In this document: positions 44,336 through 64,000 of the stretch, piece by piece | Layout of the letters: every line of letters begins with the position of its first letter | Numbering within the stretch: position 1 is the first letter of the stretch | DNA from: Escherichia coli | GTDB taxonomy: Bacteria; Pseudomonadota; Gammaproteobacteria; Enterobacterales; Enterobacteriaceae | Reading direction: 5' to 3' (one strand) | NCBI RefSeq assembly: GCF_050920415.1 | Contig: NZ_CP169309.1 | DNA length: 64,000 nucleotides | Made by a program: the position numbers and the translations under genes | Notes under the pieces: model-generated | Seen by the model: the letters and a program-made list of their open reading frames with translations, nothing else | What the model was told of the DNA's origin: nothing | The model's database searches: none

Positions 44336-45127
44336 TTAATGGAGAAGTGCTTTTTCTAATTCCGCTATTTTTTTCTTAACTAAATTGCTTAATATTTCAT
44401 CATTAATCGAGTCTATCTCACTTTCAATTAATCTTATTTCAAAATATCTTTCTATGTTATATGCATTCTCAAATATTTGATCTTTTTGTTTAGAGATCAG
44501 TTTAGTTGCAATACGGATATGTTCGTCATATGAAACTTCATCCTCTTTGCACGTTGAATATTTATCAGTAGTTGTATAATCCTGTGACCACATACCACCT
44601 TTTTTATTATCCCTATAATACCACTGAATATGAGACATTTCATGACATAAAGTAGCAACATGAGAATCCTTTCCCGTTACTGGATTTTTTTTGCCATCTC
44701 TATACTCAAATTTTGCGCCTATGTTAATTATATAGGGCATATCCTTACTTGGGCTGACGAATGCTGCAAATTCATTACAACCTGTATAATTTATAAAACT
44801 GCTCATTGTTAAATCATTAGCTATAATCATTAATCTTCTCACACCATCCATCATAAGAAATCTAGCATTCATGCGCCTGCCTGTATTATGTCCATATTTT
44901 CTTATATTAACTTCCTTATTTCCTTTAACACCAAAGATCTTACTGAAATCATATTCCTCCTGTGCTCCCCATCTCAAAAGATCATCTGCTCTTTTTATCA
45001 AAACCAACTTTTGTGCCTTACGAGCCTTATCAATCATTATTTTAAAATGATCAGTTATTTTTTGCTCTTTCACACATTCTTCTGGCTCTGGCTTTGGTTG
45101 TCCAGAAGTTTGATTATTATCGTCCAT
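44336..45127 (-). CDS. HExxH-motif putative zinc-metallopeptidase-like type VI effector, copy 1 (intact)
   Basis: Start ATG 45127 with AAGGA RBS, overlapping the vgrG stop; HEMSH at 44630-44644 (catgaaatgtctcat on the sense strand); no signal peptide; low GC. Confidence 0.7.
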   Translation of the reverse strand: MDDNNQTSGQPKPEPEECVKEQKITDHFKIMIDKARKAQKLVLIKRADDLLRWGAQEEYDFSKIFGVKGNKEVNIRKYGHNTGRRMNARFLMMDGVRRLMIIANDLTMSSFINYTGCNEFAAFVSPSKDMPYIINIGAKFEYRDGKKNPVTGKDSHVATLCHEMSHIQWYYRDNKKGGMWSQDYTTTDKYSTCKEDEVSYDEHIRIATKLISKQKDQIFENAYNIERYFEIRLIESEIDSINDEILSNLVKKKIAELEKALLH

Positions 45128-47522
45128 AGTGTCCTTCCATTGAGAGAAAATCATCATTCGCAAATAGCAACTTCACTTTAATTTCATGTTTGCTAGATAC
45201 AAAAAAACGCTCTGTATACCCCTCTTCATCCGTTTCTCCGCGGGTCTGCGTGCCATCCTCAAAGAAGGCAATGTAGCGGGTTTCTGAATACGGTATCCCG
45301 TCATCGTCTGTAAAATGGAACTGGAGAGTATATTTTTCAGGTTCATCCTCATCGTCACCTCGATCATCACCACCACTTCCGGTCACGCAGTTCCCTCCAG
45401 AGTTTTCATTTTCTTCTCCGGAATCACTGCCATCACCACTCTTCTCATCCCCCAGTGTCTTCAGCACCGCCGGTTGCAGCGTCGGTACAGGCGTCCCCGG
45501 ACTGCCTCCCCCGTTCAGATTTATCTTCGGCCCCACTATATCCACGCCCCCTGAATGGATGACCACAAACGAGCCACCCAACTTCAGGCTTATCCGGCTG
45601 CTGCTCTCCAGCACGATATCCCCGTCCACCTTTATCCCCAGCGCACCACTCACCTTCCTCGCCAGGTCGCCTTTCACCTCCAGGCTGTGTTTTCCCTCCA
45701 CCAGGCTGATGTGGTTTCCTGTCGTTTTGTGCTCCTGCTTCCCTTCCACCGTCACCTTTCGGTCGTTTCTGACGTACAGACCGTCATCGTGGCTGACGTT
45801 CACCCGCCGGTCGTTCGTCACCTTCAGCGTCTGGTCGTTGCGCACCGTGATGCTCCGGTCATGGGCCACCGTGATACTCTGGTCGTGGCCCCCTTCTTTT
45901 CTGGTGCCGACCTCAACCGTCTGCCCCTTCACCACCCTTATCTTCTGGTCGTTACCGATGGTCTCCGTATGGTCATGCTTCACGTCCGTCGTCCGGTCGT
46001 TAAGCACCTCCGTGTCCATGTTCTTCTGCGCGTGGATATACACCTGCTCACTGTCCGTCGCATCCTCGAAACGCAGTTCATTAAAGCCGCTTCCTTTATA
46101 GGTCTTCGAGCGGATGGTCATCTGCGTCCGCGTGCCCGGTAAATCCCCCGGTGAACGGTTATCTTCATGGTAGGTCCGCCCCGTCACAATGGGCTGGTCC
46201 GGGTCTCCGTTCAGAAAGTCCACTATCACTTCCTGACCCACACGCGGTATCGCCAGATTGCCGAACCCCGGTCCCGCCCATGCCTGCGACACCCGTATCC
46301 AGCATGAACTCTCCTCCGTCATCCCGTGATAACGGTCCCAGTGAAACTTCACCCGTACCCGGCCATGCTCGTCGCAGAATATCTCCTCGCCCTTCGGCCC
46401 GGTCACGATGGCACTCTGCGGGCCGTCCACCTTCGGCTTCGGCAGCGGCGCGTGACGCCACGTCCTGTCTGCCGGTATCACCTCAAACTGGTTACTCAGC
46501 GTCGTCCCTTCACCGTGACTGCCGTGCAGCGCCTGCGGCTGTTCTCCCCGCAGTGTGCTTCCCACAACCTGCCATTCCCGGTTCAGCGTATCCGACGGGT
46601 GACCCGACAGGGTAAACCGCGTTCCCGGCCACAGCCGCGCCGTGTTACACACCCCGCTCGCCGTCTCCGCCCCGTTCCGCCACCCTTCCGTCTGGTAACG
46701 CGCAAAATCCTGGCCATGCTGCTCATCCTTGAAACGCCCCGGATAATCAAATATCTCGTACTGCGTTCCCTGCCCGTTCAGGCTCTCCCCGTCATGGCTG
46801 TAGTACCCCGGCCACCCCGGCACTTTAAACGTATAATCCTGCGTCTCCACCGACGCCACGCTTATCTGCGCACGGTAACGAAACTCACTGATGTACTCCG
46901 TCGTTCCCCCGGTCGTCGTGTTCGGGTTAAACGCCAGCGCCCCCATTCCCGTCAGCCCCGCCACGTCATCACACACCGCCAGCTTCTGTTCCGGCCCGTC
47001 CTGACTGCAGCGTTCATAAAAGAAGATACCTTCCTCCGCCCACAGCCGGGTCAGGAACGCCAGGTCGCTCTCCCCGTACTGCACGCAGAACTCCCGCGCC
47101 GGATGGTCTTCATAAAACAGCGGCATCCACGCCGTCACCCCGTTCTCTCTCAGAAGCTGTGCTGATATCGTCCCGATGTCCTGCTGCTGGAAGATACGGA
47201 AGTTCTGCCGTAACCCTGCCCGCCACAGCGGCGGGCTGATGCTCAGGGAATAACGCATCTGCCAGTCGTTGTTCTCACCGAGCTGCACCTCCGTCACGAT
47301 ACCGCTGACGTAACGCTGTGCAGTGTCGCCCTGCCAGACCGTCAGCACCGCGCTTTTCTCCAGAAAATCCTCCGCCGTCAGGTCGGACAGCCCGCTGGCG
47401 ATATCCACATCCAGGATGAACGGTGTGCAGTGGTGCTGGTACAGACGGAAGCTCACCACCGCCGTCGCCATCTCCACGATGTCGTCCACCGACAGCGTGA
47501 AACGTAATCCTTCTGAGGACAT
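45117..47522 (-). CDS. vgrG: Type VI secretion spike protein VgrG with acidic Gly/Asp-rich linker and C-terminal extension domain
   Basis: 801 aa from MSSEGLRFTLSVDD; gp27-like N-terminal region, gp5-like repeats (VKHDHTETIGNDQKIRV...), then GGGSPGTPVPT, acidic linker and a C-terminal domain of about 60 aa. Confidence 0.9.
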   Translation of the reverse strand: MSSEGLRFTLSVDDIVEMATAVVSFRLYQHHCTPFILDVDIASGLSDLTAEDFLEKSAVLTVWQGDTAQRYVSGIVTEVQLGENNDWQMRYSLSISPPLWRAGLRQNFRIFQQQDIGTISAQLLRENGVTAWMPLFYEDHPAREFCVQYGESDLAFLTRLWAEEGIFFYERCSQDGPEQKLAVCDDVAGLTGMGALAFNPNTTTGGTTEYISEFRYRAQISVASVETQDYTFKVPGWPGYYSHDGESLNGQGTQYEIFDYPGRFKDEQHGQDFARYQTEGWRNGAETASGVCNTARLWPGTRFTLSGHPSDTLNREWQVVGSTLRGEQPQALHGSHGEGTTLSNQFEVIPADRTWRHAPLPKPKVDGPQSAIVTGPKGEEIFCDEHGRVRVKFHWDRYHGMTEESSCWIRVSQAWAGPGFGNLAIPRVGQEVIVDFLNGDPDQPIVTGRTYHEDNRSPGDLPGTRTQMTIRSKTYKGSGFNELRFEDATDSEQVYIHAQKNMDTEVLNDRTTDVKHDHTETIGNDQKIRVVKGQTVEVGTRKEGGHDQSITVAHDRSITVRNDQTLKVTNDRRVNVSHDDGLYVRNDRKVTVEGKQEHKTTGNHISLVEGKHSLEVKGDLARKVSGALGIKVDGDIVLESSSRISLKLGGSFVVIHSGGVDIVGPKINLNGGGSPGTPVPTLQPAVLKTLGDEKSGDGSDSGEENENSGGNCVTGSGGDDRGDDEDEPEKYTLQFHFTDDDGIPYSETRYIAFFEDGTQTRGETDEEGYTERFFVSSKHEIKVKLLFANDDFLSMEGHYGR

Positions 47523-47813
47523 ATAAACCCCATAGCTACCGCACTCATGGTGCAAACCCTACAGAATTATAAGAAAGACTTAAGTGAGATATCCGTCAGA
47601 TAGCAACTATTAGGAAAATATTTATATACATTTCATGAATACATTCATTAATACCGAGATGTTTTTGTCTATATAAACAGAGCAAGCTAACGTCCTCACT
47701 CCATGAAAGAAACTACGTAGGGGCCTTTCGGTCCATAACAACTTTTTCCCTGTTATATCCTGACGTTCTGGTCTACTGGTGTAGTCATGCATATTGCAAC
47801 GTTCTACCCATGG

Positions 47814-56469: not shown

Positions 56470-57387
56470 ATGCTTATCTTTATCCCGATTCTCATTTTTG
56501 TCGCGCTGGTCATTGTTGGCGCGGGCGTCAAAATCGTGCCGCAGGGCTATCAGTGGACAGTAGAACGTTTTGGTCGCTATACCAAAACGTTACAGCCAGG
56601 GCTAAGTCTGGTGGTGCCGTTTATGGATCGCATTGGTCGCAAGATCAATATGATGGAGCAAGTGCTCGATATCCCTTCCCAGGAAGTTATCTCGAAAGAT
56701 AACGCCAACGTTACCATCGACGCCGTGTGCTTTATTCAGGTGATTGATGCCCCGCGCGCGGCTTATGAAGTCAGCAATCTGGAGCTGGCGATCATCAATC
56801 TGACCATGACTAACATCCGTACCGTACTGGGTTCAATGGAACTTGACGAAATGCTCTCCCAGCGCGACAGCATCAACTCACGCCTGCTGCGTATTGTCGA
56901 TGAGGCCACCAACCCGTGGGGGATTAAAGTCACCCGTATTGAAATTCGCGACGTGCGCCCACCGGCAGAGCTTATCTCTTCAATGAACGCGCAGATGAAA
57001 GCGGAACGTACCAAACGCGCTTACATCCTTGAAGCGGAAGGGATCCGTCAGGCGGAAATCCTCAAAGCCGAAGGTGAAAAACAGTCGCAAATCCTGAAAG
57101 CGGAAGGTGAGCGTCAGTCGGCATTTTTGCAAGCTGAAGCGCGTGAACGTTCCGCCGAAGCAGAAGCCCGTGCCACTAAAATGGTGTCGGAAGCCATCGC
57201 CTCTGGTGATATTCAGGCAGTGAACTACTTCGTCGCACAGAAATACACCGAAGCGTTACAGCAGATCGGTTCATCCAGTAACAGCAAAGTAGTGATGATG
57301 CCATTAGAGGCCAGCAGCCTGATGGGGTCGATTGCCGGGATTGCCGAGCTGGTGAAAGACAGCGCCAACAAACGGACTCAGCCATGA
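56470..57387 (+). CDS. qmcA: SPFH/band-7 (stomatin-like) membrane protein
   Basis: 305 aa with N-terminal TM segment and SPFH domain. Confidence 0.9.
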
Positions 57388-57842
57388 TGGAGTTAATGGT
57401 CGTTCATCCACATATTTTCTGGCTCAGTCTCGGCGGGTTGTTGCTGGCAGCCGAGATGTTGGGCGGAAATGGTTATCTGTTGTGGAGCGGCGTGGCAGCG
57501 GTGATTACCGGCCTGGTGGTCTGGCTGGTGCCGCTGGGTTGGGAGTGGCAAGGGGTGATGTTTGCCGTCCTGACGCTGCTCGCCGCCTGGTTGTGGTGGA
57601 AATGGCTGGCACGAGGCGTGCGCGAACAAAAGCACAGTGACAGTCATTTAAACCAGCGCGGGCAGCAGCTTATTGGCCGACGTTTTGTGCTGGAATCTCC
57701 GCTGGTCAACGGGCGCGGTCATATGCGCGTCGGTGACAGTTCATGGCCTGTCAGCGCCAGCGAGGATCTCGGCGCAGGTACGCATGTTGAGGTGATTGCG
57801 ATAGAAGGGATAACGCTGATTATCCGTGCGGTCATCGCCTGA
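57384..57842 (+). CDS. ybbJ: NfeD-like membrane protein partner of QmcA
   Basis: 152 aa; 4-nt overlap with qmcA. Confidence 0.85.
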
Positions 57843-57920
57843 CGCGTCTTATCACACCCGGAAATCTGTACTAAAAATCATGCCGGATAAGGCGTTTACG
57901 CCGCATCCGGCATATAGCCG
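57843..57920. repeat. REP-type palindromic repeat
   Basis: gccggataaggcgtttacgccgcatccggc palindromic unit. Confidence 0.5.
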
Positions 57921-57933
57921 AGTAGTGGCAAAA

Positions 57934-58296
57934 TTACTCTTCCCGGCCTTTCCCCATACTTTTTTGGTCTTCATCCGGATAGTGTTTTTTTAGATATTCC
58001 AGGACGTTTTTATTGACCTTGTGTTGCGTATACACCCACCCTTTCCAGTAATCAGGCTGGTCCAGATAAACTTCTGGCGGAATGGTGAAATCAGAAAGCG
58101 TTAACCATTCGGCTAACAGATCGGGGTTTCGCTTCTGGATCAACTGCAACAGCATGATCAGCGACATGGCAGAGGCAGGAGCCGTACTATCGCCACTTAA
58201 ATATTTCCACACCGTTGATCGGTTCGAACGAAAAAGGATGGGAAGCAGCGCCCGGTCCAGATTCATTTCATTAAAAATCTTCTCAAATTCATTCAT
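57934..58296 (-). CDS. Hypothetical protein, 120 aa
   Basis: ORF divergent from the adhesin-like gene, with a 365 bp AT-rich shared upstream region. Confidence 0.5.
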   Translation of the reverse strand: MNEFEKIFNEMNLDRALLPILFRSNRSTVWKYLSGDSTAPASAMSLIMLLQLIQKRNPDLLAEWLTLSDFTIPPEVYLDQPDYWKGWVYTQHKVNKNVLEYLKKHYPDEDQKSMGKGREE

Positions 58297-58661
58297 TTAA
58301 TTTTCCTGCCTGGCGTAAACCTCTTAAAAATTGAGATTTATCAAAGAAACGCATTTTAGCACACATCAGGAACTGCTTCACGTTTAGTCCAGAAACAGAA
58401 TTTATTTCGCTTATCAAAACAAGTCTTTACTCTTTTTTACATTGAAAGAGCACGAAATGATTTCCTTTTTTATTTATATGAGAAACCATTTTTGTTTCTT
58501 ATTGATGGCGTTTACGCTTACACCAGACAAAAATGCGCTTTACATCACACAAATGGCGGCGTAGATTTCGATTAAATTGCAACGTAGTTTATTTCTTAAA
58601 ACAATATTATTTGTTTCTTATAGAAACATTAATGCGACTTATTTTGAACAAGAGAAAATGA

Positions 58662-59678
58662 ATGAAAACTGTAAACGTAGCTTTACTGGCACTCATAATT
58701 TCAGCAACATCCAGCCCTATTGTTTTAGCTGGTGATACCATTGAAGCGGCGGCAACAGAGCTTTCAGCCATTAACTCTGGCATGTCGCAATCGGAGATTG
58801 AGCAGAAGATTACCCGCTTTTTAGAACGCACCGACAACAGCCCCGCTGCATATACCTATTTGACTGAACATCACTACATCCCTTCTGAAACACCTGATAC
58901 CACTCTGACTCCCCCTGTCCAGACAGATCCTGACGCAGGACAAAAAACCGTTGCCGCTACAGGTGATGTACAGACAACCGCCCGTTATCAGAGCATGATC
59001 AACGCCCGACAGTCTGCGGTAACTGATGCCCAGCAAACGCAAATTACAGAGCAACAGGCGCAGATCGTAGCCACACAAAAAACGCTCGCCGCGACTGGAG
59101 ATACGCAAAATACCGCGCATTATCAGGAGATGATTAATGCCAGGCTGGCGGCTCAAAATGAGGCTAATCAGCGCACTACCACTGAACAAGGGCAGAAAAT
59201 GAATGCGCTGACAACCGATGTGGCAGCACAACAGCAATATGAAAGGACTCAATACGATAAACAAATGCAAAGTCTGGCGCAGAAGTCTGTCCAGGCACAT
59301 GAGCAAATTGAAAGTCTGAGACAAGATTCCGCACAAACGCAGCAACAGTTAACCAACACCCAAAACCGGGTCGCTGATAACAGCCAGCAAATTAACACGC
59401 TCAATAACCATTTCGATTCGCTGAAAAACGAAGTTGAGGACAATCGTAAAGAAGCCAATGCGGGAACTGCATCTGCCATCGCTATCGCCTCACAACCACA
59501 GGTGAAAACCGGTGACTTGATGATGGTGTCAGCGGGAGCGGGAACGTTCAACGGTGAATCTGCGGTGTCTGTAGGAACATCTTTTAATGCCGGAACGCAT
59601 ACGGTACTTAAAGCAGGTATTTCTGCGGATACACAATCTGATTTCGGTACGGGTGTCGGCGTGGGATATTCGTTCTAA
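58662..59678 (+). CDS. Small trimeric-autotransporter-like protein (signal peptide, Q-rich coiled-coil stalk, YadA-type C-terminal anchor)
   Basis: Signal peptide MKTVNVALLALIISATSSPIVLA; internal tandem motif KT(V/L)AATGD.Q.TA.YQ.MINAR twice; C-terminus ...EANAGTASAIAIASQPQ...MVSAGAGTF.GESAVSVGTSF...GVGVGYSF matches the YadA anchor pattern. Confidence 0.7.
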   Translation: MKTVNVALLALIISATSSPIVLAGDTIEAAATELSAINSGMSQSEIEQKITRFLERTDNSPAAYTYLTEHHYIPSETPDTTLTPPVQTDPDAGQKTVAATGDVQTTARYQSMINARQSAVTDAQQTQITEQQAQIVATQKTLAATGDTQNTAHYQEMINARLAAQNEANQRTTTEQGQKMNALTTDVAAQQQYERTQYDKQMQSLAQKSVQAHEQIESLRQDSAQTQQQLTNTQNRVADNSQQINTLNNHFDSLKNEVEDNRKEANAGTASAIAIASQPQVKTGDLMMVSAGAGTFNGESAVSVGTSFNAGTHTVLKAGISADTQSDFGTGVGVGYSF

Positions 59679-59731
59679 TTTTAACAGCAATTTCTTATTC
59701 GCAATTTTCCGTACATTATTTAAGGTTAACA

Positions 59732-60154
59732 ATGATGAATAGCTCCATTAAATCGTTTTCCCTGCTGGCGGTTATATTACTGGCTGGCTGTAGTTCACCC
59801 ACTTCCCGCATCGCAGATTGCCAGGCGCAGGGCGTCAGTCATGATACCTGTTATCTCGCAGAACAACAGCGTCAGACGGCTATTTTAAGTGCATCCGAGG
59901 CGCAGGCATTTAAAAATGCAGAAGCCGCACAACATGCCCAGGCGGCAAAGAAAGCCATTTATAAAGGATTTGGCATGACCTTTAGAATGAGCAGTAAGAA
60001 CTTTGCTTATCTCAATGATTCATTATGTGCAATTGATGAAGACAATAAAGATGCCACTGTTTATCAGTCAGGTCTTTATAACGTCATTGTTTATCACCAC
60101 ACGGGAAAAGTCGCCTTAATGAAGGAAGGTCAGTTTGTGGGTTATTTAAAATGA
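59732..60154 (+). CDS. Lipoprotein, 140 aa
   Basis: Signal peptide with lipobox LLAGC; AAGG RBS. Confidence 0.65.
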   Translation: MMNSSIKSFSLLAVILLAGCSSPTSRIADCQAQGVSHDTCYLAEQQRQTAILSASEAQAFKNAEAAQHAQAAKKAIYKGFGMTFRMSSKNFAYLNDSLCAIDEDNKDATVYQSGLYNVIVYHHTGKVALMKEGQFVGYLK

Positions 60155-60357
60155 AGGAGCAAAGGAAAATCCCCCTGACGCATATTATGATTATCGGTGC
60201 GTTTATTTTTGCCTTCTTACAAGTGGTGTTATTAGCCTCCCTGGTTCACGCTGTGAATGTTAACAACGAAATCCAGGAAGGCTTATTTCAGTCGGGGCGC
60301 ATTATGGTAGAAAGTTTGCAGCATATTCTGTCTGTGCAACCGGTGATTAACGGGTAA
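60151..60357 (+). CDS. Small membrane protein, 68 aa
   Basis: ATGA overlap with the lipoprotein gene; single hydrophobic helix IMIIGAFIFAFLQVVLLASLV. Confidence 0.45.
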   Translation: MKEQRKIPLTHIMIIGAFIFAFLQVVLLASLVHAVNVNNEIQEGLFQSGRIMVESLQHILSVQPVING

Positions 60358-60445
60358 GAGCACCGCTTCCATTTATAGAGCAATAGTCACCAGCGTAATT
60401 TTCTGGCACAGTTCAGGGAACTGAAATTTTGGCTAAGGAGTGGCC

Positions 60446-61669
60446 ATGCTTTTTCCCTTTCGAAAACCTGAAGTACGTCTGCTGAAAAATACCGCTGCGG
60501 GCGTCATTTTTTCGGTGAAGTCAGGTAAAGGATTTCTGCGTCAATGTGTGATTTACGATCCGCACCCTTATGGGCTTATCCGTTCGCTCTGCTGGCAGGA
60601 TGTCCCGTTAATACGTTTCTGGTCCGAGGCTGGCTGCCCCACCTGTGCGGAATTTGTCTACAGCGGTTTTGCGGATGATGAACAGGGAGCCGCCCGGTTT
60701 TTGTCTGCTCTCGAAAACTGGAATCGCCCGTGGTCTGGCATGACGGACGCTTTTGCCGCGCTGACACCGCTGTTCTCATGCATGGCTGATGGCTATTATC
60801 TGCTCGAAGATCGTGAACTTTACCCGACGGATGGCAACGGGCATTTCTTTTGGGCGGCAACGGACCATAGCGCCAGTAATCCGGCGACCGTTGCCGTCTG
60901 GGATCCTGAATATTGCTATTTCAGTGACACCGCCCCCTGTTTTCTTCTACCCGGCCAGCCGCCATCACATTTTAATCCTGAGCGTGCGACGTTTTATCGC
61001 GATAAACCGGACGCCCGCGCTCTGGCCTGGTATCTCCCTGATTCCTATCTCTGCGTTCTGCTCGACGGACACCATAAAGCAACAGCCGCCGCGCTGGAAG
61101 GGCGACCGCTCAAAACACTGGTGCTCAGCACGGCAACCCATTTTAATGATGAGCAACAAACCCTGGTATTTCCGGGCGGAGAATGTCTGCACAAAACAGA
61201 GCTACTGTGCCAGGTTCCCAAACTCACTGAGTGGAAAACATTACCGCCCGGCGCATGGGAGAGTTTCGGCCCTGATAAGCACATCAGCCCATCCGAAACC
61301 TGGTCAGAAGAGTTGCAGCAGAGCGTCAGTCGGTACCCTTCACTGGATCAAGCCTGGCAAATTGTTGAGGCCGGGAATTTGAGCGAAGCTCGTATTAAGC
61401 GCATGATCCAACAAGGTTTGGAGGGGGATGAAAAGGCTGATGTTATTTTGCAGGCACTGTTTTCCACATACTCGCCGCTTTTTGTTGACTTTGCTCGATT
61501 CGTTATCAGCCATCCGGCATACGCCATTTATCGCCCTCTCACCTTCCGGTTGATGGCGCAAAACCGAACGCCGCAAGCAGATGCTTTTTTTCTGGATTTT
61601 GCCATCAATGATGACGGCGAACGTCCGGAGTTGACGAAAATAATGGACGACTATTTTCGCAAGCCTTAA
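60446..61669 (+). CDS. Hypothetical protein, about 407 aa
   Basis: AAGGAG RBS 7 nt upstream of the ATG at 60446 (the ORF track starts at GTG 60440); no recognisable domain; host-like GC. Confidence 0.6.
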   Translation: MLFPFRKPEVRLLKNTAAGVIFSVKSGKGFLRQCVIYDPHPYGLIRSLCWQDVPLIRFWSEAGCPTCAEFVYSGFADDEQGAARFLSALENWNRPWSGMTDAFAALTPLFSCMADGYYLLEDRELYPTDGNGHFFWAATDHSASNPATVAVWDPEYCYFSDTAPCFLLPGQPPSHFNPERATFYRDKPDARALAWYLPDSYLCVLLDGHHKATAAALEGRPLKTLVLSTATHFNDEQQTLVFPGGECLHKTELLCQVPKLTEWKTLPPGAWESFGPDKHISPSETWSEELQQSVSRYPSLDQAWQIVEAGNLSEARIKRMIQQGLEGDEKADVILQALFSTYSPLFVDFARFVISHPAYAIYRPLTFRLMAQNRTPQADAFFLDFAINDDGERPELTKIMDDYFRKP

Positions 61670-62077
61670 TCACCCCGCTCGATGATGACAGCAGCCGGAG
61701 AGATTTTCGATAATTGGGCAGTCGGCGCTGTCATCACCGGGGCAGGCATTCGCCAGCGCCAGTAGCTGGTCGCGCATGGATTGCAGCTCCTCAATGTGCC
61801 GTTCGATCTCCGCTACCTTCTCCAGCGTACGACGTTTGACGTCGGCACTGTGACGCTGCGGATCGTTAAACAGATTCACCAGTTCGCCGCTCTCTTCCAG
61901 GTTAAAGCCCACCTGGCGCGCCTGGCGCAGTAAGGTCAGTTCGTTGAGATGCTGCTGCGTGTAGGTTCGATAACCATTTTCGCTGCGCATCGGCGGCGTC
62001 ACTAGCCCCTTTTCTTCATAGAAGCGAATGGCTTTGCTGGTCAGGCCGGTAATTTTTGCTACATCGCTAATGTTCAT
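61670..62077 (-). CDS. cueR: MerR-family copper-responsive regulator
   Basis: 135 aa starting [26 protein letters not shown] and ending CCHHRAG, recognised CueR sequence. Confidence 0.95.
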
Positions 62078-63249
62078 CGTTCGCGCAACGCCTCCTGTGC
62101 TTTGTTAAAGGGTTTCAACAGATAATCCAGCACGCTTTTTTTGCCGGTGCGGATATCGACCGTCGCCACCATGCCGGGAAATATCGGAAACTGCTGTTTA
62201 TGTTTATTTTCCAGATGGTTGCTGAAAGTGCGAATGTACACCCGATAGTAATAAACATCGCGTCGCACTTCATCCTGCACGGTGTCTGGTGATATCACCG
62301 CCACTTCCCCCGGCAGGCCGCCGTAGATGGAGTAGTCGTAAGCGGTTATTTTCACCAGCGATTTTTGCCCCGGATGGATAAACGCCACATCGCGGGGGGA
62401 GATTTTTGCCTCGATCAACAGTTGCTCATCCAGCGGCACGATAGTCATAAGTTTACCACCGGGGGCGATGACGCCGCCAACCGTGGTGACGTCAATGTCC
62501 TGAACAATGCCTCGCACCGGCGCAGTAAAGTTGAGCCGGGTGAGAGAATCTTCCCGCCCGCGGATCACCGAACGCTGGGTTTCCACTTCCGCATTGGCTT
62601 TCGCTAACTCTTCCCGCGCCTGTACGTAGTATTGCGTACGCACGTCGCTAAGTTTGTTTTCCAGTTCATTGGCCTGGCGTTGCAGGCGCAGCACTTCAAC
62701 GCTGCTCGCCGCCCCCTGTTTCACCAGCGGCTGGGTCATCGCCAGTTCGCGGTTGACCAGGCTGATCCCCTGCGTCAGCCCGGTGGTGGCTTTGTTCAAC
62801 CCGTCGCGGCGAGTGTTATATAACGCCGTTTCCGACTCGATAAGTTCGGGGAATTTATTCAGTTCGTCAGGAAAGACCAGCGGTTTATTGCTCACTTCTG
62901 CCCGCAGCCGCGCCGAGGTTGCCAGCGCCGCATACAGCCGCGACATCGCTTCCTGGACGTCGGATTCCGTTTTGGTGCGGTTAAGCTGCGCCAGCGGCTG
63001 CCCCTGTTCGACAATATCGCCAACCTTCACGTCGAGATGATACAAAATCCCGCCTTCCAGCGACTGCACCACCTGTTCGCGTCCAGAAGGTTCTACCGTG
63101 CCGCTGCCGGTGGTGACTTCATCAAGCTGGAAGTACCACGCCCAGCCGAGAAAACAGAGCAGCATCACAGCGGTAACGCGCACCGCCAGCGCCGAACGTG
63201 GCAGGCGGGGTTCAGTCAGGCCACGGTTGTATTGCAGTTGTCCGTTCAT
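62074..63249 (-). CDS. Type I secretion membrane fusion protein (HlyD family)
   Basis: 391 aa; N-terminal TM segment, long coiled-coil region, C-terminal [23 protein letters not shown] typical of HlyD-family T1SS adaptors. Confidence 0.8.
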
Positions 63250-64000
63250 GCGGCAGACCCCTTATTCTTCTCCTGCAACACCACGCGTCGCGTCGTGGGT
63301 TCGCCCTGTTCACGCAAAATGGTCTCTTTCGCGCCGTCCATCACAATGCGCCCCTGATCCATCACAATTATCCTGTCCACCAGTTGCAGCATTGCCGTGC
63401 GGTGAGTAGCGATGACCAGCGTGCGATGCCCAATCCACTGTTTTAGTTGTTCAATTAAATACGCTTCCGCCATTTCATCCAGCGAGGCACTGGGTTCATC
63501 GAGCAGGACGATATTGGGTTGAGAGATGAGCAGCCGCGCCAGCAGCAGCGTTTGCCGCTGGCCGCCAGAAAGACCAAATCCCCCTTCCTGAATCATGTAG
63601 TTAAGGCCGTTTTTCTGCTTCTGCACAAACGGCAGCGCCCCGCTGAGGGTCAACGCGCGTTCGATATCTTCATCGCTGGCTTCTGGCATCCCCATGGTGA
63701 GATTTTCCCGCAGCGAACCGAAGAACAGTCGCCCAGTCTGGCTCAGCAGCCCCATGTCGCGGCGCAGATCCGCCGGATCAAGTTGCCCGATGCTGATGTT
63801 ATCCAGCAGCACCTGCCCCTGCTGGGCGATACGCATTCCGGCGAGCATTTGCAGTAGCGTTGATTTACCCGCGCCGTTGCGCCCGAGAATGGCGATTTTC
63901 TCTCCGGCCTGAATGTTGAGTTTGCCGATCGCCACATCGGCAATCTTCTCTTCTTCGTCGTAATAAAACACCGCGTTGCTGAACTGATAATTTCCGTGCA
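63246..64000 (-). CDS. Type I secretion ABC transporter, C-terminal ATPase part (5' end outside the window)
   Basis: Walker A GRNGAGKST, signature LSGGQRQ, Walker B LLDEPSASLD; 4-nt overlap with the MFP gene start. Confidence 0.8.
   Translation of the reverse strand, partial: HGNYQFSNAVFYYDEEEKIADVAIGKLNIQAGEKIAILGRNGAGKSTLLQMLAGMRIAQQGQVLLDNISIGQLDPADLRRDMGLLSQTGRLFFGSLRENLTMGMPEASDEDIERALTLSGALPFVQKQKNGLNYMIQEGGFGLSGGQRQTLLLARLLISQPNIVLLDEPSASLDEMAEAYLIEQLKQWIGHRTLVIATHRTAMLQLVDRIIVMDQGRIVMDGAKETILREQGEPTTRRVVLQEKNKGSAA

Follow-up and report, generated by a model that had tools for sequence, protein, structure and literature searches.

Escherichia coli cueR adjoins the end of O-island 28 and is probably transcribed mainly from a promoter within the neighboring secretion gene

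We consider it likely that, in Escherichia coli strains carrying O-island 28 (OI-28), the island ends at the start codon of the copper regulator gene cueR, with cueR mRNA coming mostly from a promoter inside the gene for the island's periplasmic adaptor (MFP) and only to a minor extent from read-through. The window analyzed here is a 64,000-nucleotide stretch of E. coli DNA (contig NZ_CP169309.1), and its end is the distal part of OI-28, a published type I secretion system (T1SS). Such a layout does exist but is unremarkable and has been described before; the turnover of the cueR promoter adds one small novelty.

The identity of cueR is clear. Its product matched the CueR equivalog profile NCBIfam NF007590 over residues 1-135 of 135, C-terminal metal-binding region included (308.6 bits; cutoff 244), exceeded the cutoff of TIGR02044 (207.5 bits; cutoff 147.4) and is identical to K-12 CueR. 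The full-length match, together with the identity to the K-12 protein, indicates that the annotated start is correct. This start overlaps the MFP stop codon as ATGA, and the MFP start overlaps the ABC stop in the same way (Table 1); both joins, described in the first-pass annotation of the window, were borne out on reading the sequence. Such a four-nucleotide overlap is not unusual in itself: ATGA is the commonest overlap class for same-strand bacterial gene pairs, and the last 7 kb of the window contain four examples (qmcA/ybbJ, lipoprotein/68-aa ORF, ABC/MFP and MFP/cueR). The MFP/cueR ATGA is kept in all eight intact loci compared and also in the pseudogene remnant of K-12 type. An AGGAGG, which probably acts as the cueR Shine-Dalgarno sequence, is invariant in all aligned Escherichia loci, E. 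albertii included. At its other end, the cueR stop codon (61670-61672) directly adjoins the TAA stop (61667-61669) of a convergent 409-aa ORF that had no NCBIfam or Pfam match in the profile search, so cueR transcripts must end inside this ORF, antisense to it. No terminator-like site was found on the minus strand from 61400 to 61670.

Table 1. Features at the end of the window, ordered by position.
Feature	Position	Strand	Basis or detail
Convergent 409-aa ORF, function unassigned, PGAP hypothetical protein	60440..61669	+	ORF
cueR, Cu(I)-responsive MerR-family regulator, 135 aa	61670..62077	-	ORF; NF007590; PGAP name in 100%-identical genome
ATGA overlap, MFP stop TGA / cueR start ATG	62074..62077	-	Reads TCAT on + strand
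HlyD-family type I secretion periplasmic adaptor (MFP), 391 aa, = hlyD28 / Z0635	62074..63249	-	ORF; TIGR01843
MFP 3' coding part, ~95 nt, surviving as a fossil in K-12-type E. coli	62078..62172	-	Alignment
Putative cueR Shine-Dalgarno AGGAGG	62091..62096	-	Sequence; 13 nt before ATG, within MFP codons Gln-Glu-Ala
Homologue of K-12 major cueR promoter P1, weak ancestral coding state	62116..62153	-	TCCGCA, 18-nt spacer, TGc + TGGATT
Intragenic cueR promoter inside MFP gene	62237..62273	-	-35-like ATGAAG at 62273-62268, 17-nt spacer
-10 element TACTAT of that promoter	62250-62245	-	TSS A at 62237, -160 from cueR ATG
ATGA overlap, ABC stop TGA / MFP start ATG	63246..63249	-	Reads TCAT on + strand
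Type I secretion ABC permease/ATPase, 3' part, = hlyB28 / Z0634	63246..64000, cut by window end	-	TIGR03375

The sequence of the window recurs at 100% identity in NZ_CP169399.1, where the PGAP gene order is ybaT, TolC-family outer membrane protein (OMP), siiEA (20,775 bp), T1SS ABC, HlyD-family MFP and cueR. The MFP scored 328.1 bits with TIGR01843 (cutoff 208.65), reaching the end of the profile (422 of 422), and aligned with the HlyD structure 8dck_C from last residue to last residue (478 of 478; E=6e-30); solved LipC was matched too. Alignment to the last residue of HlyD and to the profile end indicates that the MFP C-terminus is genuine. The complete ABC protein, which in the identical genome has 720 aa, matched the LssB-type profile TIGR03375 at 835.9 bits (cutoff 693.1; residues 10-701) as well as Pfam ABC_membrane and ABC_tran, whereas the HlyB-type TIGR01846 gave only 390 bits, under its cutoff of 725. 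At the N-terminus Peptidase_C39 was matched only at E=0.029 (residues 12-82), no cysteine was found in residues 1-160, and TIGR01193 reached 254 bits, under its cutoff of 524. We therefore rejected a bacteriocin-type exporter with an active C39 peptidase; the N-terminal domain fits a non-proteolytic, C39-like one. The OMP encoded between ybaT and siiEA, outside the window, matched TIGR01844 (412.4 bits; cutoff 225.15), and the C-terminal 899 aa of SiiEA, whose gene stops 3 nt short of the ABC gene, matched the T1SS C-terminal target domain TIGR03661 (32.3 bits; cutoff 17.6). ABC, MFP and OMP genes are thus accompanied by that of an adjacent predicted substrate, SiiEA, with a putative uncleaved C-terminal T1SS signal. 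The first-pass annotation had noted that no substrate was in the window and had proposed reading further upstream to find one and to inspect the ABC N-terminus. The substrate is indeed outside but is not missing, since SiiEA (rtxA28/rtxB28 in O157) lies just past the window end, and the upstream extension yielded both this RTX adhesin and an ABC N-terminus with no signs of active C39.

Together, the TolC-like OMP, the giant adhesin SiiEA, the LssB-type ABC and the HlyD-type MFP form a single-strand block of about 26 kb that corresponds to OI-28. In EHEC O157:H7 EDL933 the island consists of tolC28 (z0608), rtxA28 (z0609), rtxB28 (z0615), hlyB28 (z0634) and hlyD28 (z0635), the last being the name given to the MFP gene, and makes a T1SS/RTX-adhesin system required for adherence and colonisation (Niu et al., Gut Microbes 2025; PMC12758282). 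RstA activates OI-28 through a box at -294 of tolC28, and all OI-28 genes drop together in an rstA mutant (PMC12758282); the paper does not mention cueR. Gene order and the ybaT and cueR flanks are the same in the window's strain, the RstA box is present at the same position with one mismatch, MFP gene and cueR are 95-96% identical in nucleotide sequence (95.7% for the MFP gene against the O157:H7 allele), and the arms of the published lambda-Red primers find their expected sites in the window with 0-2 mismatches. One difference lies in the annotation of siiEA, which is a single intact 20.8-kb gene (PGAP) in the window's strain and a frameshifted one, split into two ORFs, in O157. We rejected E. 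whittamii as the source of the region: its MFP and ABC are 99% identical in amino acids (tblastn) but 93% in nucleotides, below the E. coli alleles.

Salmonella SPI-4 SiiCDF/SiiE, BapBCD/BapA and Pseudomonas LapEBC/LapA are giant-adhesin type I secretion systems. OI-28 resembles them at the family level in its TolC-like OMP, apparently non-proteolytic C39-like ABC, HlyD-type MFP and very large repetitive adhesin with a C-terminal signal; the annotation of the OI-28 block shows no accessory genes of SiiAB or LapD/LapG type. The likeness to the HlyBD-TolC haemolysin exporter lies in the MFP, which aligns with HlyD to the last residue, and in the sub-cutoff match of the ABC to TIGR01846. Unlike that exporter, OI-28 has an LssB-type ABC, a TolC-family gene of its own and an adhesin substrate rather than a pore-forming toxin.

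A transcription start for cueR has been mapped in EDL933 by Cappable-seq, at a distance of 160 nt from the start codon and hence inside the MFP gene (PMC10469882 Table S5). This start passed the reproducibility filters of its authors, and the table is confined to gene-associated TSSs within 250 nt and above thresholds, which leaves room for weaker starts, such as one at -39. The primary 5' end is preceded by a suitably spaced -10 element, as TACTAT ends 7 nt before the A homologous to the mapped start. Before we had seen the mapped data, the top position weight matrix (PWM) match in O157 had forecast a start at -161, which agrees to within 1 nt. Both hexamers and the start are invariant in seven intact alleles, E. 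whittamii included, and identical in the window, which differs from EDL933 at one spacer base; this conservation suggests that the same promoter would be active in the window's strain. On the PWM this promoter scores 6.3, less than the 7.4 that shuffled sequence reaches on average as its best, and the -35 ATGAAG is poor, so sequence alone would not identify it. A consensus promoter scan of the minus strand found nothing and is uninformative because its thresholds demand a good -35. Extra constraint is suggested by the final 95 nt of intact MFP genes, where 4 sites vary against 10.6 expected (P about 0.016; 7 related alleles). The predicted fold of the 160-nt leader is no more stable than that of shuffled sequences (z = -0.65), giving no sign of a structured regulatory leader, and no Rfam families were found in 57000-64000.

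Published RNA-seq of EDL933 gives cueR at 66.6 and 62.9 FPKM in the wild type and 60.2 and 50.5 in an rstA mutant, and tolC28 at 10.7 and 12.0 and at 4.0 and 4.9, respectively (PMC6824119). The cueR level (~65 FPKM) is thus about 6-fold above that of tolC28 (~11 FPKM), although mRNA stability confounds a comparison of genes at opposite ends of a 26-kb block, and loss of RstA leaves cueR at 0.85-fold and tolC28 at 0.39-fold, a 2.5-fold fall. These figures bear on the reading in which the T1SS operon ends with cueR, which would be transcribed mainly from the tolC28 promoter through read-through and translated by reinitiation at ATGA, so that CueR follows RstA and Ca2+. The geometry allows one hlyD28-cueR transcript: cueR shares its strand with the five island genes, the gaps from gene to gene being -4 to 108 nt, no convincing intrinsic terminator was found on the minus strand in 62078-64000 and none fits before cueR. 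The rstA mutant is in keeping with it too, since all OI-28 genes fall together and cueR falls slightly. We nevertheless regard it as unlikely that cueR depends on the operon in this way, given the abundance and near RstA-independence of its mRNA, the primary 5' end inside the MFP gene and the expression of cueR in K-12-type strains that have no island. The published expression data argue that a joint transcript supplies no more than a minor part of the cueR mRNA. Some read-through is probable, because a terminator would not fit between the MFP gene and cueR, and its share is probably minor; losing it would be expected to lower cueR by about the 15% seen in the rstA mutant, a fall that with n=2 is indistinguishable from noise. 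Most likely, therefore, cueR is independent of the secretion operon, with its own promoter inside the MFP gene as mapped in EDL933. The first-pass annotation had offered either such a promoter or co-transcription; the EDL933 start agrees with the former, and the expression data speak against the latter as the main route. Its suggestion that copper would come to control the secretion system runs backwards, as read-through would put cueR under the regulators of the island (RstA, Ca2+).

K-12 lacks the island, and the gene upstream of cueR is ybaT (glsA-ybaT-cueR, b0485-b0487), in line with the first-pass remark that its neighbor differs. That remark was incomplete, since in K-12 the final ~95 nt of the MFP gene survive, joined to cueR through the same ATGA and including the putative Shine-Dalgarno sequence; the island deletion has its right end near 62172. 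Cappable-seq of K-12 gave cueR starts at -39 (score 100, the strongest) and -86 (PMC4782308). Both starts fall inside the fossil or at its border, and the -160 promoter is absent. Their placement uses an assumed offset of 776 between U00096.2 and U00096.3, based on the v2 lacZ coordinate; this is the only offset that makes all four TSSs purines, and PWM predictions then fall within 0-3 nt of the TSSs. The Mendoza-Vargas and SMRT-Cappable-seq supplements have no row for a K-12 cueR TSS, and text matches in PMC2760140 and PMC3548332 were to 'Cuernavaca', not cueR. A sigma54 site has been reported inside K-12 ybaT, 679 nt upstream of cueR (PMC4591121), and is irrelevant as a cueR signal in the window's strain, where ybaT is ~26 kb away.

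The K-12-type deletion took away the -160 promoter, and K-12 starts cueR at -39 and -86 instead. The -86 start has a TATTAT -10 formed at the deletion junction, and the -39 start (P1) would have been gained through three changes, one of them a frameshifting single-base loss, that turned TCCGCA-18-TGGATT into TTCGCA-17-TTGAAT. We see about as much for as against the broader proposal that the ~95-bp fossil is the present cueR promoter, leader and ribosome-binding site in nearly all K-12-type E. coli, that the promoter was rebuilt from the junction TATTAT and the P1 changes after the deletion of OI-28 had removed the -160 start, and that clean deletions of OI-28 or hlyD28 would also disable cueR.

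If P1 were the main cueR promoter in island strains as well, transcription would begin at the G at 62116, the base homologous to the strongest K-12 start. The sequence there is homologous, with the TGn motif kept, and the shortage of variable sites in the final 95 nt of the MFP gene would suit it. This is improbable all the same, as the island form has a PWM score of only 2.89 against 8.48 in K-12, and the EDL933 table gives 160 for cueR, not about 39. It is very improbable that the overlap is a chance by-product of where the island ends and that the intragenic start and low variability are noise: ATGA overlaps are common, the -160 score is inside the shuffled range and the variability test is built on seven related alleles, but cueR needs some source of transcription and is well expressed in EDL933, its mapped start survived filtering for reproducibility, and the PWM forecast had come so close to it.

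Of the 5,426 complete E. coli genomes, 5,424 matched the MFP gene; it is whole, and the arrangement intact, in 959, and in nearly all the others only its last ~84-95 nt are left. Because these remnants carry the same ATGA, the MFP-cueR arrangement is ancestral in E. coli. Outside Escherichia, copA and cueR are divergent neighbors, at most about 140 nt apart, in 44 of 75 species, and in none of the 75 does an MFP homologue precede cueR. In this divergon (Salmonella, Citrobacter, Enterobacter, Klebsiella, Kluyvera and others) CueR is 83-92% identical in amino acids, ybbJ/qmcA lie downstream and cueR starts about 110 nt from copA, with what we take to be the copA -35/CueR-operator within about 15-35 nt of the cueR ATG. 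In Escherichia the operator stayed on the copA side, and copA and cueR are more than 3 kb apart, or about 30 kb with the island. An alternative origin of the MFP 3' end, as an ORF run-on into the old cueR leader, drew on an alignment in which AAACCCTTTAACAAAG from E. coli faced the copA -35/CueR-operator region found in other genera, with an identity of roughly 57% across 35 nt; we rejected it because the MFP tail is a canonical HlyD C-terminus, to the last residue, and E. coli still has the operator on the side of copA. The first-pass annotation had named an ancestral arrangement with a known substrate, or an independent cueR promoter with no read-through, as findings that would undo its view. 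The ancestral state, the substrate and the independent start have all been found; some read-through remains probable.

We infer the following order of events. In an ancestor of Escherichia, OI-28 and glsA-ybaT would have come between copA and cueR, against the cueR start codon, severing cueR from the copA-cueR divergent control region kept in other Enterobacteriaceae. The signals for cueR would since then have come from the MFP 3' end, as a sigma70-type promoter with its TACTAT and 160-nt leader, and the AGGAGG. Most cueR mRNA would arise at this intragenic promoter, and read-through from the RstA/Ca2+-activated island promoter would probably contribute a minor share; on the long transcripts, ATGA would let terminating ribosomes re-initiate at cueR.

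The secretion genes and their substrate have already been described, and the adjacency of cueR is the ancestral E. coli state rather than an oddity of one strain. A link from calcium and RstA to copper sensing through read-through is possible, and the available data suggest that it is small. In all Escherichia, cueR would rely on signals inside, or derived from, the MFP gene, so cueR expression and copper tolerance deserve a check whenever hlyD28 or OI-28 is deleted; the primers published for the hlyD28 knockout, as listed, take out the cueR start codon (PMC12758282). The locus would be a neat natural case of promoter replacement after a deletion, with starts mapped for both states.

The ATGA overlaps proposed in the first-pass annotation are present at both junctions: the TGA of the upstream gene and the ATG of the downstream gene share bases on the coding strand, and the plus strand reads TCAT. 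CueR is 100% identical to the K-12 protein and aligns to its NCBIfam equivalog along the full length (1-135 of 135). The HlyD-family adaptor (MFP) pairs final residue to final residue with a structurally solved HlyD, and its last residue also coincides with where TIGR01843 stops. The gene ends are genuine in both cases. The overlap is of a routine type, and four occur in the window's last 7 kb. Despite encoding the same protein, cueR has 94.6% nucleotide identity to its K-12 counterpart, and alleles of island carriers also lie 4-6% apart from each other. This synonymous diversity looks high for an E. coli core gene and perhaps reflects recombination around the two flanking variable regions.

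Features at and around the cueR locus (window positions unless stated)
Feature	Position	Strand	Remark
120-aa ORF	57934-58296	minus	block between ybbJ and cueR
338-aa protein, YadA-type C-terminal anchor	58662-59678	plus	block between ybbJ and cueR
140-aa lipoprotein	59732-60154	plus	block between ybbJ and cueR
68-aa membrane ORF	60151-60357	plus	ATGA overlap with lipoprotein gene
409-aa ORF	60440-61669	plus	PGAP hypothetical protein
cueR	61670-62077	minus	ORF, 135 aa
hlyD28 reverse arm	62036-62077 (O157:H7 locus L002, 21924-21965)		primer mapping
MFP gene, upstream of cueR	62074-63249	minus	ORF, 391 aa
ATGA, MFP/cueR junction	62074-62077	minus	sequence; TCAT on plus strand
AGGAGG (SD)	62096-62091	minus	13 nt before cueR ATG
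cueR promoter -10 TACTAT	62250-62245	minus	ends 7 nt upstream of 62237
cueR promoter -35-like ATGAAG	62273-62268	minus	17 nt above TACTAT
hlyB28 reverse arm	63208-63249		primer mapping
ATGA, ABC/MFP junction	63246-63249	minus	sequence; TCAT on plus strand
ABC gene, 3' part	ends 63246, leaves window at 64000	minus	ORF

The window is a 100% match to E. coli MFDS1022581, in which PGAP places on a single strand ybaT, a TolC-family outer-membrane protein (OMP) gene, siiEA (20,775 bp, 'BapA-related adhesin SiiEA'), a type I secretion permease/ATPase (ABC) gene, the HlyD-family adaptor gene and cueR. The secretion substrate, previously thought to require a search upstream, is known and adjacent: SiiEA, encoded next to the ABC gene. 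NCBIfam curated cutoffs were exceeded by the ABC protein (TIGR03375, LssB-type; 836 bits, cutoff 693), MFP (TIGR01843; 328 bits, cutoff 209), OMP (TIGR01844; 412 bits, cutoff 225) and the SiiEA C-terminus (TIGR03661, T1SS target domain; 32.3 bits, cutoff 17.6). Whether the ABC N-terminus is a C39 domain had been left for checking; its Peptidase_C39 match is marginal (E=0.029) and its first 160 residues contain no cysteine, which points to a C39-like domain without proteolytic activity, of the kind found in RTX and adhesin exporters, rather than a bacteriocin-processing one. O157:H7 carries the same gene block, and the locus is O-island 28 (OI-28), worked on experimentally by Niu et al. as tolC28, rtxA28/rtxB28, hlyB28 and hlyD28; its genes are needed for epithelial adherence and mouse colonisation and are switched on by Ca2+ and by RstA, which acts via a box located at -294 to -280 of tolC28, and cueR is not mentioned (PMC12758282). 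The RstA box of the window's strain lies at the same position with one mismatch. PGAP calls siiEA of O157:H7 a frameshifted pseudogene with an internal stop (L002 1-18589), and in the window's strain it is one intact gene of 6,924 codons (L001 1-18589). The two ORFs of the split gene, z0609 and z0615, have been treated as two functional RTX adhesins (PMC12758282).

A cueR promoter inside the MFP coding sequence, one of two arrangements the first-pass annotation allowed, is borne out by EDL933 Cappable-seq, in which the distance from start codon to TSS is 160 nt, compared with 19 for K-12 in RegulonDB (PMC10469882, Table S5). This TSS corresponds to the A at 62237. Before these data were seen, a simple weight matrix (PWM) had ranked the same TACTAT/ATGAAG element top in O157, with a predicted TSS at -161. 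Hexamers and start site are unchanged across seven intact alleles, E. whittamii included. These results indicate that cueR of island carriers has its own promoter within the MFP gene. The last 95 nt of intact MFP genes have 4 variable sites against 10.6 expected (P about 0.016), variability in the lowest 2% of the gene's 100-nt windows, which gives modest support for extra constraint on the 3' end.

The other arrangement was co-transcription, linking copper-responsive regulation to secretion. With island genes and cueR spaced by -4 to 108 nt, and no convincing terminator found before cueR on the coding strand, part of the transcripts from the tolC28 promoter would be expected to run through to cueR. 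On these, ATGA would allow termination-reinitiation; on the 160-nt-leader transcript, translation would begin de novo at AGGAGG. The leader showed no unusual structure and matched no Rfam family. In EDL933 RNA-seq, FPKM values in wild type and rstA mutant were 66.6 / 62.9 and 60.2 / 50.5 for cueR (fold 0.85), and 10.7 / 12.0 and 4.0 / 4.9 for tolC28 (fold 0.39) (PMC6824119, supplementary file 2). Thus cueR mRNA exceeds that of the first island gene and depends hardly at all on the activator of the island. The 15% drop in cueR (about 9 FPKM) is roughly what the loss of ~7 FPKM of read-through would produce, but with n=2 replicates it is not separable from noise. Any link through co-transcription is at best minor.

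As sole query, the MFP gene matches 5,424 of 5,426 complete E. coli genomes. It is whole in 959; in nearly all others the match is limited to its last ~84-95 nt, labelled by PGAP a frameshifted pseudogene fragment. Base-level alignment revealed one deletion junction common to K-12, ST131, APEC O2:K1, O111:H8, others and a separate Escherichia clade, all of which keep ATGA; the remnant is more decayed in E. albertii. K-12 cueR does have a different upstream neighbour, as stated in the first-pass annotation, but K-12-type genomes retain this MFP fossil. The arrangement is well annotated, and the island-bearing state is ancestral to that of K-12. A third state occurs in E. coli SCPM-O-B-8794 (L008 220-4001), with ybaT, ~2.4 kb, a partial ABC gene, an MFP gene carrying a 2-nt insertion close to the 3' end, and cueR; here the island was apparently truncated independently.

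In a CueR scan of one genome per species (80 loci returned), MFP lies upstream of cueR in Escherichia only. In 44 of 75 non-Escherichia species, copA lies next to cueR in divergent orientation, at most about 140 nt away, and the sequence directly before the cueR ATG is the reverse complement of what looks like the copA -35 and CueR operator. In E. coli that operator-type sequence remains copA-side, adjoining glsA; glsA-ybaT and the island therefore occupy a former divergent control region of ~110 nt and directly adjoin the start codon of cueR. In a further 15 species copA lies 0.2-3.7 kb from cueR, and in 16 it is absent within 4 kb upstream (spacing loci include L012, L016, L018, L019, L024, L025, L028-L030, L040 and others, from Citrobacter and other genera). 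Many Citrobacter and Kosakonia species carry an insert of ~2.9 kb in the cueR-ybbJ interval, and throughout the Enterobacteriaceae both flanks of cueR look prone to repeated insertion.

Because the -160 promoter falls beyond the 95-nt fossil, it was lost in the K-12-type deletion. Cappable-seq of K-12 gives plus-strand TSSs at 513,102, 513,131, 513,178 and 513,196 of U00096.2 (scores 3.7, 49, 100 and 2; PMC4782308), that is, -115, -86, -39 and -21 from the cueR ATG; the PWM finds all four, each within 3 nt. In place of the lost promoter, K-12 relies on P1 (-39), which is wholly inside the fossil, and on P2 (-86), whose -10 TATTAT spans the deletion junction. In the window and O157, the P1 homologue has the coding state TCCGCA, 18-nt spacer, TGGATT (PWM 2.9). 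Three changes occur in every one of the eight deleted-type loci (ATC to ATT, a lost G, CTG GAT to CTT GAA) and together yield TTCGCA, 17-nt spacer, TTGAAT (PWM 8.5); these loci share one haplotype and count as a single event, not replicated evidence. From sequence comparison, these changes look like promoter rebuilding once the island was deleted. The left end of the deletion is within the ybaT terminator hairpin, GGGCGCAGTAC-TTTCT-GTACTGCGCC (L004 5844-6181, ybaT-tolC28 intergenic region of the window's strain, versus L085 169-292, K-12). K-12 retains only the left arm; its ybaT terminator is therefore truncated, which may ease ybaT read-through into cueR.

Downstream, the TAA of the 409-aa ORF (61667-61669) abuts the cueR stop (61670-61672), and cueR transcripts must end within this ORF, antisense. 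It is present in the window's strain and some others, is absent from O157 and K-12, and had no match in NCBIfam or Pfam searches. A convergent cueR-ybbJ 'excludon' is reported for K-12 (PMC12288877). The interval from ybbJ to cueR also contains a second variable block (57900-60360), shared with O157:H7 and missing from K-12, in which ybbJ abuts cueR. At 45117-47555 (minus) and neighbouring positions, downstream of ybbP, the identical genome (L001 36479-42501) is annotated with a type VI secretion VgrG/TssI gene, then hypothetical genes and part of an ISAs1 transposase; O157:H7 has an RHS element at this position.

The lambda-Red reverse homology arm listed for hlyD28 sits in cueR, with its end 4 nt past the A of the ATG (PMC12758282, Supplementary Table 2). 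As listed, the hlyD28 deletion loses the cueR promoter, SD, ATG and first base of codon 2, and the P2-site ATG is not in frame (predicted M-T-L-A-M-stop). With the hlyB28 reverse arm, the hlyD28 ATGA is likewise lost. Single-gene complementation succeeded, and cueR expression was unreported (PMC12758282); because complementation worked, either the primers are listed inexactly or starts farther downstream serve instead. The promoter-turnover reading and the knockout warning are the sole, small new elements here; in practice, knockouts in OI-28 carriers can hit cueR signals.
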